From: Thermoanaerobaculia bacterium
GTDB lineage: Bacteria > Acidobacteriota > Thermoanaerobaculia > UBA5066
Direction of reading: 5' to 3'
DNA: 64,000 nucleotides
NCBI GenBank assembly: GCA_963719225.1
Contig: CAVRAY010000001.1
Span: 512,001-576,000, forward strand
A model generated the notes under the pieces. The model ran no database searches and was not told the origin of the DNA. It saw only the letters and a program-made list of their open reading frames with translations. Made by a program: the position numbers and the translations under genes. Below, in pieces: positions 4,162-12,400 of this stretch. Positions within the stretch are counted from its first letter, which is position 1. Each line of letters begins with the position of its first letter.

Positions 4162-5616
4162 GTGCTGCTCGTCCTCGCCGCCGCCGGGCCGCTCGCGGCC
4201 GCGCCCGGCGGCACGCTGCGCTGGGGCGGCGACGCGGAAGGCGGCGCGCCGTTCGTCGAGGCGGACCCGGCCGATCCCGCCCGCGTGCGCGGCTTCGACG
4301 TGGAGATCGCCGAGGCGCTCGCAAGAGGCCTCGGGCGGACGCCGCAATTCGTGCAGGTGGCGTTCCAGTCGATCGACCAGTCCGCCCAGCGCGGCGATTT
4401 CGACATCGGCCTTTCGGGGATGGAGGACACGCCGGCCCGCCGCGCCGCGCTCTCGGTGACGGTGCCGTACTTCGAGTTTCGAGAAGTGCTCGCCGTGCGC
4501 GCCTCCGACGTGGGCCGGTTCCGGACGCTGGCCGACTTCAGGAGCAGGAGGATCGGCACCCTCGCCGGCACGATCGCGTACGACATCCTCCTGAAGGCGC
4601 GCGCGGAGCAGGGCGTCCTGCCCGTGTCGTACGACGACGACGTCCACCCGTACGAAGACCTCGCCCGCGGGCGCCTCGACGCGGTCCTCCTCGACCACGT
4701 CCTCGCGGCGCGCTCGCTGAAGCGCGTCCCGGGCCTCGCGGTCCTGCCCGAAACGGTCGCGACCGGGCGCTACGTCGGCGTCCTCGCGAAGGAGAACGCC
4801 GCGCTGCGAGACGAAATAGACGTCCTGCTGAAGCAAATGATGCGGGACGGGACGCTGCGGAAGATCTTCGGGAAGTGGAACGTCTGGGACGAGGAGCAGG
4901 CTGCCTTCCAGGCACAAGAAGAGAAGAGGAAGATTTCTTCCCTCCCCTCTTCCCCTTCTAAGAAATCTTCTCTCTCTCTAATTCTTTCTTACTTGCCTTC
5001 CCTCTTCCGCGCCGCGCTCGTGACGATCGTCCTCTCGTGCGTGGCGATGGCGCTCGCCGTCGCCCTCGGGATCGTCATCGCGAGCGGCCGCATTTACGGA
5101 GGCGTTCTCGTGCGCGCGGCGCTCACGGGATACGTGGAGCTCGTCCGCGGCACGCCGGTGCTCCTCCAGCTCTTCGTCCTCTATTACGGCCTCTCGTCCG
5201 TCGTGCGCCTGCCGGCCTTCGTCGCCGCGCTCCTCGGTCTCGGGCTGAACTACGCGGCCTACGAGAGCGAGATCTACCGCGGCGCGCTCGAGGCCGTGCC
5301 GCGGGGACAGCTCGAGGCCGCGCGCACTCTCGGGCTCACGGAAGGACAGATCCTGCGCCTCGTGCGCGGTCCCCAGGCCTTCCGCCTCGCGCTCGCGCCC
5401 ATGACGAACGACTTCGTCGCGCTGCTCAAAGATTCCTCTCTCGTCTCGGTCGTGACCGTCGTCGAGCTCACGAAGCAGACGGCGATCTTCGCCACGAACG
5501 TCGGAAGCTGGGCGCTCCCCGGCGCGCTCTGCGCGGCGCTGTACCTCGCGATGTCTCTTCCGCTCTCTCGCCTCGCCCGGCGCCTGGAGGAACGGTGGAA
5601 CGCGCCCTCGGCCTGA
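4162..5616 (+). CDS. Polar amino-acid ABC transporter, substrate-binding + permease fusion
   Basis: SBP_bac_3 motifs (GFDVEIA, GDFD) followed by a HisM-type permease (RGTPVLLQL, EIYRGA..VPRGQLEAA, KDSSL). Start is uncertain. Confidence 0.9.
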   Translation: MLLVLAAAGPLAAAPGGTLRWGGDAEGGAPFVEADPADPARVRGFDVEIAEALARGLGRTPQFVQVAFQSIDQSAQRGDFDIGLSGMEDTPARRAALSVTVPYFEFREVLAVRASDVGRFRTLADFRSRRIGTLAGTIAYDILLKARAEQGVLPVSYDDDVHPYEDLARGRLDAVLLDHVLAARSLKRVPGLAVLPETVATGRYVGVLAKENAALRDEIDVLLKQMMRDGTLRKIFGKWNVWDEEQAAFQAQEEKRKISSLPSSPSKKSSLSLILSYLPSLFRAALVTIVLSCVAMALAVALGIVIASGRIYGGVLVRAALTGYVELVRGTPVLLQLFVLYYGLSSVVRLPAFVAALLGLGLNYAAYESEIYRGALEAVPRGQLEAARTLGLTEGQILRLVRGPQAFRLALAPMTNDFVALLKDSSLVSVVTVVELTKQTAIFATNVGSWALPGALCAALYLAMSLPLSRLARRLEERWNAPSA

Positions 5617-6368
5617 GGTCGCCGCTGCTGTCGATCAGCGGCCTCCGCCTGTCGCGCGGCGCGGTGGAGGTCGTGAAAGGTGTGGATCTCGCGCTCGAGC
5701 GCGGCGAGCTCGTGGCCCTCATGGGCCCTTCGGGCTGCGGAAAGACGACGATCCTGCGCGCCGTGGCCGCGCTCGAGCCTTTCCAGGCCGGCGCGATCCG
5801 CGTGGACGGCGTGCCGCTCTCTCCCGGGCCGATGCTTCGCGAATCGGCGTTGTCCGAGCTCCGCCGCAAGGTGGGTCTCGTCTTCCAGCTCCACTGCCTC
5901 TTCGACCACCTGTCCGCTCTCGACAACGTCACCCTCGCCCCCATCCACGTGCTGCGGCATTCGCGCACGGAAGCGGAGGAGCGGGCGCTCGCTCTTCTCG
6001 CGAGGCTCGGCGTCGCCGCCCGCGCCCGTTCGAAGCCCCGCGAGCTCTCCGGCGGCGAGGCACAGCGCGTGGCGATTGCGCGGGCTCTCGCGGTCGATCC
6101 CCCTCTGCTCCTGATGGACGAGCCCACCGCATCGCTCGATCCGGCGCGCAGGAACGAGCTCGGGGAGTCGCTGGAGAAGCTGACCGCTCAGGGGCGGTCG
6201 CTCCTCGTGGCGACGCACGACGACGACTTCGCCCGGGACTACGCCACGCGCGTCGTGGTCCTTTCCGGCGGCGTCGTCGTGGAGGACGGCCCCCCGGGCG
6301 AGGTCCTCGTGACCCCCCGGCACCCCGCTACGGCCCAGCTTCTGCAGTCGAAAGGGAAGAAGGTCTAG
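5595..6368 (+). CDS. Amino-acid ABC transporter ATP-binding protein (GlnQ-like)
   Basis: GPSGCGKT, LSGGE, LMDEP, H-loop. GTG at 5595 follows GGAGG; the track start at 5037 is over-extended. Confidence 0.9.
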   Translation: MERALGLRSPLLSISGLRLSRGAVEVVKGVDLALERGELVALMGPSGCGKTTILRAVAALEPFQAGAIRVDGVPLSPGPMLRESALSELRRKVGLVFQLHCLFDHLSALDNVTLAPIHVLRHSRTEAEERALALLARLGVAARARSKPRELSGGEAQRVAIARALAVDPPLLLMDEPTASLDPARRNELGESLEKLTAQGRSLLVATHDDDFARDYATRVVVLSGGVVVEDGPPGEVLVTPRHPATAQLLQSKGKKV

Positions 6369-6397: not shown

Positions 6398-7390
6398 ATG
6401 GCAACCGCAAGGCGCCTCAGGCAGACGATTCTCAGGGAGGCGGTCCGCGAAAACGTGGACGTCATCGAAAAACGTCTGCCCAGGGGCCTGAGGCGCGCCG
6501 ACCGCTTTCGAAGGCATCTCTTCCGCACCTCCGTCTTCATCGTCGTGCCGCTCGCCCTCTTCCTCTCCATCAACGCCCTGACGACGGGACGCGGCGAACG
6601 CACGGACGTCCTCGTCGTCGCGGGACCGTCCGCGGCCCCGCGGGTCCCCGCGGCCGTCATCAACGCTCCGAACGGCCTCGAACCCTCGCTCTTCCACCTC
6701 GAGGTGCGGTCCGTCGTGATCGACCCGGGACACGGGGGGCTGGATCCCGGAGCGGCGGCCTCCGGAGTCGTGGAAAAGGACGTGACGCTCGACGTCGCGC
6801 GGCGTCTCCGAGAGCTCCTCGTCGCCCAGAAGATCGCCGTATCGCTCACGCGCGACGCGGACACGACGCTGTCGCTGCGCGACCGCGTCTCGCTCGCGAA
6901 CGCGAAAAAAGCCGATCTCTTCGTGTCGATCCACGTGAACTCGCTGCCGGCCGTGAAGGAGAAGCGCGGCGTCGAGACGTATTTTCTCGGCACGACGACC
7001 GACCCGCACGTCCAGCGGCTCGCTCTCGACGAGAACCGAACCTCGGGCTACACGATGGCGGATTTCCGGCGCCTCCTCGAGGGCGTCCTCGCGGACTCGC
7101 GGCAGGGCGAGTCGCGCAAGTTCGCCGAGTCCGTGCAAGGGGGGCTCGTGAACGCGCTCCGCCCGGTCGTGCCCCGCCTGCAGGACCGCGGCGTGCGAAG
7201 CGCGCCCTTCGCGGTCCTCATCGCGACGGAAATGCCGGGTGTGCTCGCGGAGGTGTCGACGGTCTCGAACGAGGACGAGGCGCGCCATCTCCGGGATCCC
7301 GCGTATCGTCAGCAGATCGCGAGGGCTCTCTGCAACGGGATCCTCGCCTACGCGGAGTCGCGGAACCATCCGCCCTCCAAACGGAGTTGA
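6398..7390 (+). CDS. Membrane-anchored N-acetylmuramoyl-L-alanine amidase (Amidase_3)
   Basis: IDPGHGG, EKDVTL, SIHVN and LAEV zinc/catalytic residues; basic N-terminus followed by one hydrophobic segment (SVFIVVPLALFLSI). Confidence 0.93.
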   Translation: MATARRLRQTILREAVRENVDVIEKRLPRGLRRADRFRRHLFRTSVFIVVPLALFLSINALTTGRGERTDVLVVAGPSAAPRVPAAVINAPNGLEPSLFHLEVRSVVIDPGHGGLDPGAAASGVVEKDVTLDVARRLRELLVAQKIAVSLTRDADTTLSLRDRVSLANAKKADLFVSIHVNSLPAVKEKRGVETYFLGTTTDPHVQRLALDENRTSGYTMADFRRLLEGVLADSRQGESRKFAESVQGGLVNALRPVVPRLQDRGVRSAPFAVLIATEMPGVLAEVSTVSNEDEARHLRDPAYRQQIARALCNGILAYAESRNHPPSKRS

Positions 7391-7391
7391 C

Positions 7392-8411
7392 ATGAGCGGG
7401 AAGAAGGAAGTTCTCCACGTCGGCATCGACCTCGGCACGTCGCGCAGCGCGATCACGGCGTCGAACGGCGTGCATCACGTGGTCGAGAGCTACGTGGGAT
7501 GGCCCCTGGACATGGTAGCGAGGAAAGTCGTCAAGAAGCCGATCCTCTTCGGCGCCGAGGCCCTCGAGAACCGGCCGATGCTCGACCTGCACCGCCCGCT
7601 CGAGCGCGGCCTCATCAAGCAGGGCTCGGCGAAGGACGAGGAGGCCGTGCACGAGCTCCTGAAACACCTCATCTCGCTCGCCGGGAAGAAAGACGGCCAG
7701 TCCGTCCACGCCGTCGTGGGCGTGCCGGCCGAGGCGCTCCGCGTTTCGCGTTTGCACCTGCGCGGCGCCGTCAAGGGGATCGCCGACGCCCTGCTCATCG
7801 TGTCCGAGCCGTTCGCGGTGGCCTTCGGAATGGACGCGCTGCTGCACACGATGGTCATCGACATCGGCGCGGGGACCACGGACTTCTGCGTCATGAACGG
7901 GCGCTACCCGACCGAGGACGACCAGCGCACGCTGACGCACGCGGGCGACTCCATAGACGAGCAGCTCATGGCTCTCGTGAAGACGAGGCACCCGGACGGC
8001 CGCTTCTCGATCCACATGGTCCGCGACTGGAAGGAGAAGAACAGCTTCATCGGCAACGCGCCGGGACCGGTCGTCGTCCGGTTCCCGGTGAAGGGCAAGC
8101 CGGTCGATGTGGACATCACCGCCGAGATGAAGAAGGCCTGCGAGAGCGTCGTCGGCCCGATCGCCGAGACGATGCTCGATCTGCTCGCGAAGGTCGAGCC
8201 CGAATACCAGGAGAAGGTGCAGCGCAACGTCGTCCTGGCGGGCGGCGGCTCGCAGATGCCCGGTCTCGCCGCCGCGCTCGAGAAGACTCTCGCCGAGCTC
8301 GGCGGGGGCCGCGTGCGCGCCGTGGAGGATCCCGTCTTCGCGGGATCGAACGGCGGGCTCGCCATCGCGCTGGACGCGCCGGAAGGCGACTGGGAGCCGC
8401 TCTCGGCATGA
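7392..8411 (+). CDS. MamK-like actin-family ATPase
   Basis: GIDLGTS, VVGVPA, VSEPF, IDIGAGTTD, LAGGGS, DPVFAG and C-terminal W-x-x-L follow the MamK pattern rather than MreB (IEEP, DIGGGT). ATG at 7392 after GGAG. Confidence 0.88.
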   Translation: MSGKKEVLHVGIDLGTSRSAITASNGVHHVVESYVGWPLDMVARKVVKKPILFGAEALENRPMLDLHRPLERGLIKQGSAKDEEAVHELLKHLISLAGKKDGQSVHAVVGVPAEALRVSRLHLRGAVKGIADALLIVSEPFAVAFGMDALLHTMVIDIGAGTTDFCVMNGRYPTEDDQRTLTHAGDSIDEQLMALVKTRHPDGRFSIHMVRDWKEKNSFIGNAPGPVVVRFPVKGKPVDVDITAEMKKACESVVGPIAETMLDLLAKVEPEYQEKVQRNVVLAGGGSQMPGLAAALEKTLAELGGGRVRAVEDPVFAGSNGGLAIALDAPEGDWEPLSA

Positions 8412-10162
8412 GTCCCGTCGACAGCGGCTTCCCGCGGGATTCCGGCGTGAAGAAGCGGATGCTCCCCTCGGTGACCGAGGTCGTCCGCGAGCTCGCCAAG
8501 GTCGTCTCCGCGGACCCGGCCGTGCTGTTCAAGGGCGCGCGGAGCGTGGTCGCCGAGGAGCTCGCGAAGGTGAAGCAGGGGTTCGAAGCGGCGCCGCTCG
8601 ACGTCCTCGTCAAGAGGGCGCGCCTGCAGCTCGAGCGCGACGGCGAGGCGACCCCCGTGTCCGACCCGCCCATGCCCGTCTTTCCGACACGCCCCGCGCC
8701 GTCGCGCGATGCGGCGGAAACCCCTTCGTCTCCCGCGGGCGGCGCCTCCACGAAGAGGGCGACTCCCGACGATCCCTTTCAGGACGTGGCGTCGCGGGCG
8801 GAGCTCAACTGGGAAAAGGAGATCCCGATCCAACCCGAGGACGCGCCCTTCCGCTCCGCGATCCTTCCCATTCCGCGCAAGTCGCGGGGGCCGCTCGAGA
8901 TTTCCCAGCCCATCGACGCGCCGCACAAACCCGCTTCGGAGCCGAAGGTTGAGCCAAGAGTTGAGCCGAAGGTTGAGCCGACGCCTGGGCTGAAAACCGA
9001 GCCGGCCCCTCGGAAACCGCATCCCGAGCTGGAGCTGGACTTTGCTCGCCCGTCGCCGGCGGCGCCCGAAGCTCCCAAGCCAAAACCGAGAGTCGCGCCT
9101 CCCGAGCCGCCTCCGGTTCGGCCCGAGCCGGCTCCGAAGCCGAAAGCAACGCCTGCCGAGCCCGCGCCGCTCGCGTCCGAGCCCGCAGAACCGGCGCCGA
9201 AGCCGGCCCCGGCCGAGGTTGCGCCGGAAAAGCCGATGCAGCGTCCCGCGGTGGTGTCCGCACCCGCCATCCCGCTCGTGAACCCGCGCGAGCTCGAGCT
9301 CCCCGAGGCCCTCTCCCGGCGCGCTTCGCCGCCTCCCTCGGTTCCCAAGGCTCCTTTCGAGCCGCTTCCGCAGCCCGCCGGCCCGGAGCGGTTCCTCGTG
9401 ACGCCGGCTCCGCCTCCGCGGCGCGAGCCCGCGGTGATGTCCATGTCGGAGATGCCGCCCCTCGCAGAGACTCTCGAGGACCAGATCGAGAACCACGACG
9501 ACACGCAGCCGAACATGGAGGAGTTCAATTTCAAGGCGGCTGAAAATCCCGCCCCGGCGCAGGCCCCGCCGCCCTCCCGCTCGAGCCGAAGGGGCTGGCT
9601 CGTTGCGATCCTGGGCGTCCTCGTGATCGCCGCGGGCCTGACGTGGGCCGTGCGCGAGGGCGTTTTCAAGAGCGACGTCGTCAGGAACCCAGCGCTCGTC
9701 ACGCAACAAATCCCCGACCTGGCGCCGCCCGAAAGCGTGGCGCCCGCACAGGCACCCACGGCTCCGCCACCCGTCCTCGGAAAACCCGCGGGGCCGCCAT
9801 CGAAATCCGCTCCCGCTCCGGCGAAACAGTCTGCCGCCGGTCCCCCCTCGGGCGCCGCGATCCCGAAGGGCCGGGCTGCGGTGCTGCTGACGCCCGACTG
9901 GGCGGGGAAGCCTGTCGTCTACGTCATTCACTTCTCGTCGACGAAGGATCGCGAGAGCGCGGCGAAGGAGGCGCAGAAGCTCGGCGCCGCTCTCGGCGCT
10001 CCCGCACGCGCCGTCGAAGTGGATCTCGGCGAAAAGGGGACCTGGTACCGCGTCGTGATCGGCGAGTTCAAAGACGTCGACGCCGCGCGCGCGTTCCGCG
10101 CGGAGCTCGAGGCGAAGAAGACGCCGGGCATGGGCTTCGTCTACGAGATGCGGGGGCGCTGA
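8408..10162 (+). CDS. Pro-rich bitopic membrane protein with C-terminal SPOR domain
   Basis: ATGA overlap with the actin stop; small helical N-domain, long Pro/Glu/Ala-rich region, TM (WLVAILGVLVIAAGLTWAV), SPOR-like YVIHFSS...GTWYRVVIGEF..A.AF. Confidence 0.85.
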   Translation: MSPVDSGFPRDSGVKKRMLPSVTEVVRELAKVVSADPAVLFKGARSVVAEELAKVKQGFEAAPLDVLVKRARLQLERDGEATPVSDPPMPVFPTRPAPSRDAAETPSSPAGGASTKRATPDDPFQDVASRAELNWEKEIPIQPEDAPFRSAILPIPRKSRGPLEISQPIDAPHKPASEPKVEPRVEPKVEPTPGLKTEPAPRKPHPELELDFARPSPAAPEAPKPKPRVAPPEPPPVRPEPAPKPKATPAEPAPLASEPAEPAPKPAPAEVAPEKPMQRPAVVSAPAIPLVNPRELELPEALSRRASPPPSVPKAPFEPLPQPAGPERFLVTPAPPPRREPAVMSMSEMPPLAETLEDQIENHDDTQPNMEEFNFKAAENPAPAQAPPPSRSSRRGWLVAILGVLVIAAGLTWAVREGVFKSDVVRNPALVTQQIPDLAPPESVAPAQAPTAPPPVLGKPAGPPSKSAPAPAKQSAAGPPSGAAIPKGRAAVLLTPDWAGKPVVYVIHFSSTKDRESAAKEAQKLGAALGAPARAVEVDLGEKGTWYRVVIGEFKDVDAARAFRAELEAKKTPGMGFVYEMRGR

Positions 10163-10199
10163 GGCACGAGCGCGCTCGTCTTGTACGTCGCTGCGTCGG

Positions 10200-11680
10200 T
10201 GTCAAAGCTCCTTAGAAGTGTCCCCTCGTAGAGCTCGTTAGAAATGTCCCCTTTTGGTCGTCGTAGTCGTCGCGCGGTGGAAATGTGGAAAACGGGAGGC
10301 CGGCCTCATCGGAGGCCGGCGCGCTCCTTGCGCTCCCATGAAGCCTGGACGCTTGCGGCGGTTAATGGTGTTCTCCAGGGGTGAACATCAGAGGGCGCTT
10401 TGAAAGGGCGGCGTGTTGCCACGGAGGCCGGCTTGATCAGTGGCGCCGGCCGAGGCGGCCGGTTTTTGATTTCGTGAAACTCGAGGGCTCGATGGTAGTG
10501 AAGCAGCACCCGACTGCCATCAAGCCTGTGGCGAACCACGATCTTCTCGCGGCGGCGCGGCATCTGAGACTTGGGCCCGGTAATCTGGAACCAGCGGCCG
10601 TCCCAGGCGACCGTCCAGTCGTTCTGCACGGTGCGCTGCTCTTCGAAGACGAAAACATCCTCGAGCCGTAGGCGCTTGGGCACGGGTCGGTGGTAGTCGA
10701 CTCGGCTAGCCGAGCTGTGCGCGAATCTCTGATTGATCGTCTCGAGGAATCCTCCTCTCAGAAGGGCGTTGGCCGCCTGGAGGTCCTTGATGCCATGCAG
10801 CCTGAACTCCTTGACGAGCCGGTCCTGAAGCACGCCGTGCCGCCGCTCGATCCTGCCCTTGGCCTGAGGGCTGGCTGCGGGAATGATCTGAATCGAGAGC
10901 TTGTGGCAGGCCTTGCCGAAGGCCGTCAGTGCAGGCCGGCCTAAGAGCTGCTCGTCTTTCGTCGGCTCGCGATCAGCCACGTAGAGATTCTTGTGGTCGG
11001 TGTAAAGCGCCTTGGGGATCCCGTAAAGCTCGATCCACCGCCACAGCACCCTCATCGCTCCTTCGGTGGTCTCCTGCTCGAAGAATTCGCCTCCCATCTT
11101 CGCCGTGGCGTCGTCGACGAGGTCGATCAGGCATGGCTTGTGGCCCGTCTCGAGCCAGTCGTGGAAGCTTCCGTCCATCTGAACGAGCTCGCCGAAGTGC
11201 TCCTTCGGCGGCCTCCACCTGCGGTGCGGCCCTCGTTTCCTTTTCTTCTTCCACAGCCCCTCTACCATCAGCCACCGCCGCAACGTCTCGTGAGAAACCC
11301 TCAGCCCCACCTCGAGAAGCTTCTCGGCCGCCAGTGTCGGCCCAAAACCTTCCAGCCGCGTCCGGCAGAGCTCGAGACTCTGCTGCTTGCTCTCAGGGTC
11401 CAACTTCCGATTCGACGGCCGTCCTCGCGAGCGATGCACCAGTCCCTTGGCGCCCTCGGCGCGGTATCTCTTCCAGATCCTCTTGCCCTGCCGCCCGCTC
11501 ATCTGAAGCCGCTCGGCAGCCGCCACGACCGTCTGACGCCCGGCCTTCACCTGCTCGAGCTCCACCAGCCGCGCTCTCTCCTTCGTGCTCAGCCCCACGA
11601 TCTCCTCCATCGCGCCCCCTTCTTTACGAGGGGACACTTCTATCGAGTTATCGAGGGGACACTTTCATGGAGCTACGACA
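10200..11680 (-). mobile_element. Complete IS1202-family (formerly ISNCY) insertion sequence, 1481 bp, 17-bp target duplication
   Basis: Ends read TGTCAAAGCTCC and TGTCGTAGCTCC (revcomp), each with two subterminal AA(G/A)TGTCCCCT boxes. Direct repeat GTACGTCGCTGCGTCGG at 10183-10199 and 11681-11697. Confidence 0.93.
10306..11610 (-). CDS. DDE transposase, IS1202/ISNCY family
   Basis: N-terminal HTH (GLVHRSRGRPSN), GELVQMDGS, VDDAT, YTD, SPQAKGRIER. ATG at 11610 after GAAGGGGG. Confidence 0.93.
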   Translation of the reverse strand: MEEIVGLSTKERARLVELEQVKAGRQTVVAAAERLQMSGRQGKRIWKRYRAEGAKGLVHRSRGRPSNRKLDPESKQQSLELCRTRLEGFGPTLAAEKLLEVGLRVSHETLRRWLMVEGLWKKKRKRGPHRRWRPPKEHFGELVQMDGSFHDWLETGHKPCLIDLVDDATAKMGGEFFEQETTEGAMRVLWRWIELYGIPKALYTDHKNLYVADREPTKDEQLLGRPALTAFGKACHKLSIQIIPAASPQAKGRIERRHGVLQDRLVKEFRLHGIKDLQAANALLRGGFLETINQRFAHSSASRVDYHRPVPKRLRLEDVFVFEEQRTVQNDWTVAWDGRWFQITGPKSQMPRRREKIVVRHRLDGSRVLLHYHRALEFHEIKNRPPRPAPLIKPASVATRRPFKAPSDVHPWRTPLTAASVQASWERKERAGLR

Positions 11681-11697
11681 GTACGTCGCTGCGTCGG

Positions 11698-11726
11698 TTG
11701 ACATCTGATGTGTGATGCGTGATGCT
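11698..11726 (+). promoter_or_regulatory. Putative sigma70 promoter/operator of vapBC
   Basis: TTGACA-N17-GATGCT ending 6 nt before the antitoxin ATG; three TGATG repeats and the CATC-T-GATG palindrome overlap it. Confidence 0.55.
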
Positions 11727-11732
11727 ATCCCG

Positions 11733-11960
11733 ATGAGGACGACACTCGAGATCGACGACGATGTCTTGCAGGCGGCGAAGGAGATCGCGGCCAATCGCTC
11801 GACTACGGCCGGTCGAGTCCTTTCGGCCCTCGCGCGAAAGGCGCTCGAGCCGGGAAGGCAACCGCAGGTACGCAACGGGGTACCCCTGATTCCGCGCCGG
11901 CCGAAAGGGAGCGTCCGCCCGACGATGGCTCTCGTCAATCGGCTCCGGGACGAGGCGTGA
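11733..11960 (+). CDS. vapB: VapB-type (RHH) antitoxin
   Basis: MRTTLEIDDDVLQAAKEIA...RNGVPL; overlaps the PIN gene start. Confidence 0.88.
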   Translation: MRTTLEIDDDVLQAAKEIAANRSTTAGRVLSALARKALEPGRQPQVRNGVPLIPRRPKGSVRPTMALVNRLRDEA

Positions 11961-12400
11961 GGCGAGTCGCCCTCCTCGACGTCAACGTCCTCGTCGCGCT
12001 GTTCGATCCGGATCACGTGCACCACGAAGCCGCCCATCAATGGTTTCGCGGCATTCGCCAGGATGGCTGGGCCACCTGCCCGATCACAGAAAACGGGCTC
12101 GTGCGGATTCTCTCGAATCCCGCCTACATGGCCCGCCCCGAGACGCGCGGAGCGATCGTCCGACGCCTCGTCGACTTCTGCGCGAGCGGTGAGCACGTCT
12201 TCTGGTCCGACGAGATCTCGTTTCGAGACCACGGTCTCTTTAAGTGGTCCGCGCCCGTGTCCCACCAGGCGCTCACGGACGTTTACCTGTTGGGTCTTGC
12301 GAGGAGCAGGTCGGGGAAGCTCGCGACGTTCGACCGAAGTATTCCCGTTGCGGCCTTCGTCGGAGCCGACCGAGGAACACTCGAGGTGATCCCGGCCTGA
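11957..12400 (+). CDS. vapC: VapC PIN-domain ribonuclease toxin
   Basis: LLDVNVL, TCPITE, TDVYLL and LATFD acidic tetrad. Confidence 0.92.
   Translation: MRRVALLDVNVLVALFDPDHVHHEAAHQWFRGIRQDGWATCPITENGLVRILSNPAYMARPETRGAIVRRLVDFCASGEHVFWSDEISFRDHGLFKWSAPVSHQALTDVYLLGLARSRSGKLATFDRSIPVAAFVGADRGTLEVIPA

Follow-up and report, generated by a model that had tools for sequence, protein, structure and literature searches.

An apparently undescribed gene pair of a membrane-anchored wall amidase and a MamK-like actin, with an optional SPOR gene

In a 64,000-nucleotide stretch of a Thermoanaerobaculia genome (phylum Acidobacteriota; contig CAVRAY010000001.1, positions 512,001 to 576,000; hereafter the window), three consecutive forward-strand genes encode a membrane-anchored Amidase_3 enzyme, an actin resembling the magnetosome protein MamK, and a bitopic protein with a C-terminal SPOR domain. 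The original prediction for this locus, made from the sequence alone, had proposed that the three genes form one self-contained module, with peptidoglycan marked by the amidase, the mark read by a membrane-spanning SPOR protein and the actin tethered by the cytoplasmic part of the latter. We find that the module is real, strongly conserved and apparently undescribed, and that its conserved unit is the pair of amidase and actin, not the triad. The predicted gene order, with a 1-nt gap between the amidase and actin reading frames and an ATGA overlap (8408-8411) between those of the actin and the SPOR protein, agrees with the coordinates of the open reading frames (ORFs; Table 1), and the three product assignments were confirmed by matches in Pfam, NCBIfam and the Protein Data Bank (PDB). 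Third-position GC (0.87 in the amidase gene, 0.93 in the actin gene and 0.84 in the SPOR gene) lies in the range expected of real genes.

Evidence for the pair comes from 202 loci (L027-L228; 80 from GTDB, 42 from a survey of the phylum and 80 from metagenomes, the last found via distant homologues) that contain 189 distinct actins. An amidase gene is situated directly upstream of 176 of these actins, with seven of the others cut by contig ends and six having room for an amidase but lacking one. Because 79 of the 80 GTDB loci have an amidase match upstream, the remaining locus being cut by the contig start, the arrangement does not result from chance. Carriers of the pair include Acidobacteriota, Ca. 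Binatia, Ca. Rokubacteria, Nitrospirota and Desulfobulbus-like Desulfobacterota, and the close relatives are Thermoanaerobaculia. Since the actin was detected in 33 of the 401 phylum genomes and in 78 of the 121 class genomes (in the latter nearly always as a single match), and in none of the 14 genomes of one family in the same order, it is accessory to its hosts. Downstream of the pair, the 127 loci with at least 1.9 kb of sequence have as their third gene a SPOR protein with three-helix domain and transmembrane helix, as in the window, in 35 cases, a SPOR protein without that domain in four, and neither in 88. Of the two neighbors expected for MamK-clade actins, the amidase was recovered almost throughout and the SPOR protein in only 39 of 127 loci, and the claim of an obligate triad is not supported.

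A natural deletion likewise separates the core pair from the accessory SPOR gene. Six genomes of one genus, which are all six of the actin-negative genomes in a family of 60, have lost amidase and actin together and retained the SPOR gene (full length in five, cut by a contig end in one), such that an ABC-ATPase gene is followed by the SPOR gene after 30-92 nt, as against ~2,010-2,070 nt elsewhere; a search of five of these genomes for a copy, at another site, of an amidase with the N-terminal tail described below found none. After the loss, the nonsynonymous rate (dN) remained below the synonymous rate (dS) in 15 of 15 comparisons of the SPOR gene, with both of its domains under purifying selection, indicating that the SPOR protein works without the pair. 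Changes in the three-helix and SPOR domains numbered 50 and 131 after the loss and 59 and 281 otherwise (odds ratio 1.8, bootstrap 1.2-2.7; 38 proteins and one loss event), and because the cytoplasmic domain changed about 1.8 times faster after the loss, part of the constraint upon it seems to come from the pair. A secondary link between this domain and the pair is therefore plausible from the substitution pattern, and the SPOR gene, though accessory, is no chance neighbor.

The amidase looks active, judging from its residues: H112, E126 and H179, which we take to be the His-Glu-His zinc ligands, are present in all 163 homologous domains, and E285, presumably the catalytic Glu, in 162 of them. 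Whereas AmiA, AmiB and AmiC are soluble periplasmic enzymes with a cleaved Tat or Sec signal, this amidase has a cytoplasmic region of ~40 residues with a conserved helix. Its AlphaFold model consists of a confident helix at residues 2-23 (pLDDT ~90), a second helix at residues 29-63 that includes the membrane anchor, a low-confidence linker of ~35 residues and the catalytic domain, and has as its best fold match E. coli AmiA (8c2o; E 9e-19, TM-score 0.82 by target length, 226 aligned columns). Among 71 homologues, the hydrophobic helix (KD at least 1.6) occurs in 69, a lipobox in one and a strict Tat motif in one; because positive charge precedes the hydrophobic helix in all 71 and the Tat motif is so rare, the N-terminus is most likely cytoplasmic. 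The modeled catalytic domain also contains a helix at residues 203-213, with an invariant Glu212-Asn213, that is probably the autoinhibitory (blocking) helix of AmiA/B/C-type enzymes as described in the available text of 10.1101/2020.10.19.344754. Elsewhere, the genome encodes two other Amidase_3 proteins and seven M23/LytM-domain matches.

Within the cytoplasmic tail of the amidase, the helix is conserved and its flanking sequence is not. The tail follows the pattern basic-x2-hydrophobic pair-x2-small/hydrophobic-hydrophobic-x2-Asn19-hydrophobic, in which Asn19 is present in 98% of 72 aligned amidases, and it is still readable in distant loci but was not found on the two other Amidase_3 proteins of the genome. 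A profile of the tail (E <1e-3) matched 61 of the 121 class genomes, all 61 being among the 78 that encode the actin and none among the 43 that do not, in a tally counted by hand, in which one unpublished genome figures only among the actin-negative ones, and with a profile built partly from the same 121 genomes. Five of the 43 actin-negative genomes yielded partial matches only (E 0.003-0.009), and the 17 actin-positive genomes without a strong match belong mostly to one genus, in which the motif has diverged but can still be read. This distribution points to the inner tail of the amidase, and not the SPOR protein, as the adaptor of the actin, a docking mechanism that we consider, on balance, probable.

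The same helix could, however, have a function that does not involve the actin. It is amphipathic (hydrophobic moment 0.39), and Leu12, Ala15, Asn19 and Val22, as read from the sequence, are spaced as in a zipper with a buried Asn, such that the helix might dimerize the amidase, lie on the membrane or bind a third factor encoded elsewhere; and linkage in an operon indicates shared function rather than contact, so that amidase and actin might serve one process without touching. We view this alternative as unlikely, given that the helix occurs only on actin-linked amidases and that a similar motif recurs on a soluble protein, unrelated to the amidase, whose gene precedes those of related actins. 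The tail motif was also searched for in the SPOR protein, in the actin and in the N-terminal extensions of 19 fused actins, with no convincing match.

The soluble protein came to light at three of the six amidase-less loci (L204, L223 and L227), whose actins group together near the amidase-linked clade and follow a protein that ends in a tail-like motif. Its genes (L204:4119-4793, L223:2398-3243 and L227:1023-2030), each directly before the actin gene, encode candidate MamJ-like adaptors. The family has no Pfam match and comprises 268 hits, some named Tepidisphaeraceae, and the amidase-tail pattern fits 113 of the 120 members listed (of the 268) versus 8 of 6,685 background ORFs; aligned by hhalign, the amidase tail and the family motif gave a P of 0.001 at a probability of 20%, and a homologue search with the single L223 protein recovered only itself. 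These similarities are suggestive only, but the docking motif may be portable between amidases and soluble proteins. In its position, the soluble protein parallels MamJ and Mg-1g50, the MamK adaptors that, according to the available text of PMC10653835, are encoded directly upstream of mamK.

As originally claimed, the actin is MamK-like and not nested within MreB. Its best NCBIfam match is MamK (NF040964, 375.6 bits), as compared with 211 bits for BeeR (NF053558, cut-off 530), no more than 69 bits for MreB (cut-off 293) and 22.9 bits for FtsA (TIGR01174, cut-off 175.85), and its closest sequence match in the PDB is MamK 5ljw (E 3e-75). The MamK score falls below the cut-off of 400, although this cut-off separates the groups imperfectly, since some amidase-clade relatives pass it, P0006 among them at 425 bits. 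Among 73 homologues, the phosphate-1, phosphate-2 and adenosine residues are invariant and E139 is present in 72; the 30-50 aa disordered N-terminal extension typical of BeeR is missing from the actin in the window. In an IQ-TREE phylogeny, the amidase-linked actins form one clade with 99% SH-aLRT support (98% in another run) and the magnetosome MamK rows form a separate clade (99%); this tree omitted MreB and seven long-branch rows, was thinned of 27 near-duplicates (leaving 75 of 110 rows) and has SH-aLRT as its only support, with outgroup rows assumed to be BeeR-like and with a source name that supports the label in only three of the six rows marked MamK. Judged by these comparisons, the actin is neither a strict MamK nor an MreB, FtsA or BeeR.

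The genome has a separate canonical mreBCD-mrdA-rodA cluster (C1:65-71 kb, its neighbors identified by eye from translations) and a true ftsA (C1:282976-284088). No MamI match was found in this 97% complete genome, and its CDF match (89.5 bits) falls far short of the MamB cut-off of 350, in a survey of magnetosome markers that did not extend to mamA, E, M, O or Q; a search for magnetochrome, which had no positive control, also returned no match. The predicted distinctness of the module from mreBCD, ftsA and, by the markers searched, magnetosome islands is thereby supported. These observations also bear on whether the actin is left over from a magnetosome system or has its neighbors by chance, as might be supposed from MamK being its nearest solved and named relative and from some carriers belonging to phyla that contain magnetotactic bacteria. 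Its subthreshold MamK score and separate clade, the failure to detect MamI, magnetochrome or a CDF protein near the MamB cut-off, and the linkage in 176 of 189 cases and the joint deletion of the pair, largely refute this explanation, which we regard as very improbable.

Several MamK-like actins in our collection occur in other settings. The L189 actin (4998-6029) belongs to the amidase-linked clade but is encoded by itself, with a protease-like ORF 450 nt upstream, and its amidase has apparently been lost. At L221 (2665-6005), a MamK-like actin is preceded not by an amidase but by a coiled-coil protein of 662 aa that has a single hydrophobic segment. A clade of MamK-like actins (P0014, P0018, P0021-P0030, P0033, P0035 and P0047) carries N-terminal extensions of 180-890 residues, with a helical start and then a low-complexity linker. 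P0083 (CAX83788.1), a 768-aa protein of an uncultured bacterium, joins an FtsZ domain (above cut-off) to MamK, a putative fusion that may be an assembly artefact, and P0052 and P0183-P0188 are MamK-like actins of ANME-2 / Methanosarcinales archaea that are annotated as rod shape-determining proteins.

The SPOR protein contains, in order, a three-helix domain, a long Pro-rich linker, a transmembrane helix, a short linker and the SPOR domain, and its orthologues (~390-640 aa) share the single transmembrane helix and a Pro-rich linker of variable length. It is bitopic with a C-terminal SPOR domain, as in FtsN-like proteins, but orthology to FtsN fails: it scores 16.8 bits on TIGR02223 (cut-off 107.65) and has ~395 residues before the transmembrane helix, as opposed to the short tail of FtsN. 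The genome holds three other SPOR matches. The second type of SPOR protein found behind the pair has a receiver domain in place of the three-helix domain; two of its loci are named Nitrospirota, and the gene follows the actin in the Nitrospirota-type loci L153, L156, L157, L166, L170 and L175. Because the receiver-type SPOR domain is no nearer to the one in the window than are unrelated SPOR domains, there appear to have been two independent recruitments, and a gene of the transmembrane-SPOR type was, by sequence comparison, apparently recruited at least twice with unrelated cytoplasmic domains. Such recruitment beside an amidase fits the link between amidases and SPOR proteins known from PMC6895207 and PMC7822825, the former stating, in its available sections, that the SPOR family binds denuded glycan. 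Other third genes encode a PilZ-transmembrane protein (L140) and Pro-rich single-transmembrane proteins without a Pfam match (L144 and L202); an AMIN domain was not detected in any of these three.

The alternative contained in the original prediction is that the three-helix domain of the SPOR protein, which would read the wall mark left by the amidase, serves as the main tether of the actin. Several observations accord with it: the actin and SPOR genes are translationally coupled, the three-helix domain occurs in 59 of the 60 family genomes (the actin in 54), its constraint is relaxed after loss of the pair (odds ratio 1.8), and a SPOR third gene is also present in Nitrospirota. However, 88 of the 127 pairs are followed by no SPOR gene, the three-helix domain is present in 18 of the 121 class genomes compared with 78 for the actin, and in Nitrospirota the place of the three-helix domain is taken by a receiver domain, with a SPOR domain no nearer to that in the window than unrelated ones; moreover, purifying selection persists without the actin in all 15 comparisons, and the relaxation rests on a single loss event. 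We consider a main tether of this kind improbable. The three-helix domain (model pLDDT 83; helices 22-32, 37-56 and 64-77) gave weak hints of similarity to the N-terminal domain of SelA (PF12390; 5 of 20 Pfam members, best E 0.069; Foldseek SelA E 1.7, TM-score 0.58), but the domain did not align to the genome's own SelA and had no atlas match, so that an origin from SelA was not confirmed. A selA gene (L229; G000:C1:576309-576416) starts ~300 nt past the end of the window.

Returning to docking by the amidase tail, we envision that the actin is likely to polymerize in the cytoplasm, like MamK, BeeR and saltatorellin, and that the conserved inner helix of the amidase likely docks on it. The cytoplasm would in this way dictate the line or zone in which peptide stems of the wall are cut, with stems stripped along the filament. 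Denuded glycan produced by amidases would be read by the SPOR protein as an optional partner, which in this lineage probably touches the pair secondarily. The module would supplement the Rod complex and divisome that the genome also encodes, and its most likely output would be either local thinning of the wall or a landmark of position used in shaping or separating cells.

Several points weigh against this interpretation. Every link between the proteins is drawn from genomes alone, and self-dimerization of the amidase would also be compatible with an Asn in a helix of heptad-like spacing. None of the 120 soluble proteins reaches 7.2 bits with the tail hidden Markov model (HMM), and the gene context of that family is known for three proteins only. 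A FastTree phylogeny with truncated MreB as outgroup splits the amidase-linked actins in two, which may be due to long-branch attraction, and the amidase-linked clade also holds the actins of L189 and L199, which have neither amidase nor motif upstream. Finally, the residue at the position of MamK 278 is Glu in this actin (E274) and acidic, either Glu or Asp, in 48 of the 73 homologues; this position is Asp in PDB 5ljw and Ala in 5jyg, and the MamK substitution A278D reportedly blocks polymerization. Covariation of actin residues 44 and 274, evaluated as a compensated filament contact, gave weighted counts that lean toward such a contact (39 basic-acidic, 29, 16 and 38), yet was absent from the top pairs and was rejected.

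The acidic residue may signify that the filament interface differs or that the actin is a monomeric switch. In the latter case, an ATP-dependent monomer or short oligomer, and not a long filament, would bind the tail and switch or cluster the amidase across the membrane; and because helix 203-213 is conserved and probably blocks the enzyme, the amidase would require an activating input. Yet MamK, BeeR and saltatorellin all polymerize, segment 270-273 of the actin, beside the MamK-278 position, matches MamK, any of the seven M23/LytM-domain matches could supply an ordinary activator, and ~35 low-confidence residues lie between the anchor and the catalytic domain. A switch without long filaments therefore seems to us a minor possibility.

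Most known bacterial actins guide either synthesis of the wall (MreB, FtsA) or else organelles or DNA (MamK, ParM). A wall hydrolase genetically tied to a MamK-type actin, and bearing a short candidate docking helix, would reveal a direct route by which hydrolysis is steered from the cytoplasm. The pair also provides a testable function for the MamK-like actins of non-magnetic bacteria, most of which are annotated as MreB, and its 24-residue tail peptide offers a probe of cargo binding by MamK-type filaments, including those of magnetotactic bacteria without MamJ. More speculatively, and with considerable doubt, the pair could represent a widespread machine acting on the wall, built on an actin and positioning a hydrolase but no synthase, with a portable docking helix that is common to the soluble adaptors of planctomycetes, and with a track of denuded glycan that is read and relayed to the cytoplasm by independently recruited receiver or three-helix SPOR proteins; on this view, MamK-type actins would serve as a general platform whose cargo can be exchanged, magnetosomes being one example.

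Table 1. Positions in the window of the amidase, actin and SPOR genes and of features within their products
Feature	Position	Strand	Evidence
Zinc N-acetylmuramoyl-L-alanine amidase of the AmiA/B/C type (Amidase_3), anchored in the membrane; 330 aa, core gene 1	6398..7390	+	PF01520 (Amidase_3 E 7e-50, residues 106-316), conserved active-site residues, fold match
Amidase cytoplasmic amphipathic helix, residues 2-25, candidate actin-docking motif	6401..6472	+	Conservation, predicted helix
Amidase single signal-anchor helix after basic stretch; probable topology N-in, catalytic domain outside	6521..6583	+	Hydrophobicity, charge, model
MamK-like actin ATPase, 339 aa, core gene 2	7392..8411	+	NF040964, MamK structures, ATP-site residues, clade (Pfam MreB_Mbl E 1e-20)
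Bitopic SPOR protein, 584 aa, accessory gene 3	8408..10162	+	PF05036 E 1e-9, ATGA overlap
SPOR protein cytoplasmic three-helix domain, ~residues 17-77	8456..8638	+	Alignment, predicted model
SPOR protein transmembrane helix, residues 397-415, two Arg before it	9596..9652	+	Sequence; one transmembrane helix in orthologues
SPOR domain, residues 505-570; putative denuded-glycan binding, from family	9920..10117	+	Pfam

A sigma-70 promoter was looked for at the locus and none was found. As to expression, 16 runs had word shares of at most 0.15, and four runs compared at 80% likeness yielded contigs of relatives over the genes, one of them spanning the actin and SPOR genes; such contigs show neither strand nor level and could derive from DNA, and they were not used as evidence. 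Directly behind the SPOR gene is an intact-looking insertion sequence (10183-11698), which encodes on the minus strand a transposase of 443 aa (10306-11637). Its terminal inverted repeats are doubled (10200-10252 and 11622-11680), and the target duplication is an exact one of 18 bp (10183-10200 and 11681-11698). Adjoining it is a PIN-domain gene (11957-12400), probably the toxin of a toxin-antitoxin pair.

The original prediction knew of no description of the triad, and no earlier description of the amidase-actin module was found in the open-access literature, supplements not being covered. Two filament-forming, MamK-related actins of non-magnetotactic bacteria are known: saltatorellin (10.1101/817700), from bacteria in which canonical MreB is also present, and BeeR (PMC11929497, PDB 8r2n). 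For saltatorellin, the available text describes no partner or operon and contains the word "amidase" 0 times, as does the available text of the Mad28 paper; for BeeR, the main text of PMC11929497 names no partner, and the actin in the window scores only 211 on the BeeR model, against the cut-off of 530. FcmB-FcmC of filamentous cyanobacteria (PMC12645912) likewise combines an extra actin with a partner that affects shape alongside MreB, but derives from plasmid-partition actins, and "amidase" and "SPOR" each occur 0 times in the available text. In Sinorhizobium meliloti AmiC-RgsS (PMC7822825), wall processed by an amidase is a landmark for a bitopic SPOR protein, although no dedicated actin appears in the abstract or the section titles.

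Steering of a wall hydrolase by an actin has a precedent in Bacillus subtilis, where the actin homologue MreBH is reported to place LytE, although that system is said to involve an MreB-family actin, a secreted endopeptidase and unlinked genes, with no anchored amidase bearing a cytoplasmic motif. In the E. coli divisome, FtsA contacts FtsN, and the FtsA-FtsN-AmiA/B/C loop resembles the locus in the window in having an actin inside the cell, a bitopic SPOR protein and amidases that make denuded glycan, AmiA being the best fold match; it differs in that the actin here is not FtsA, the amidase is anchored and has a cytoplasmic helix, there is no synthase and the SPOR gene is optional. MamK with MamJ or Mg-1g50 (PDB 5ljw, 5jyg, 5ljv; NF040964) is the closest solved relative, with the same ATP-binding residues and a candidate adaptor gene directly upstream of the actin, but the actin in the window is below the cut-off, forms its own clade in a genome where no magnetosome markers were found, follows a wall amidase and has Glu at the 278 position. 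By analogy, the layout of the pair would work most like MamK-MamJ, and its parts are most like those of FtsA-FtsN-amidase.

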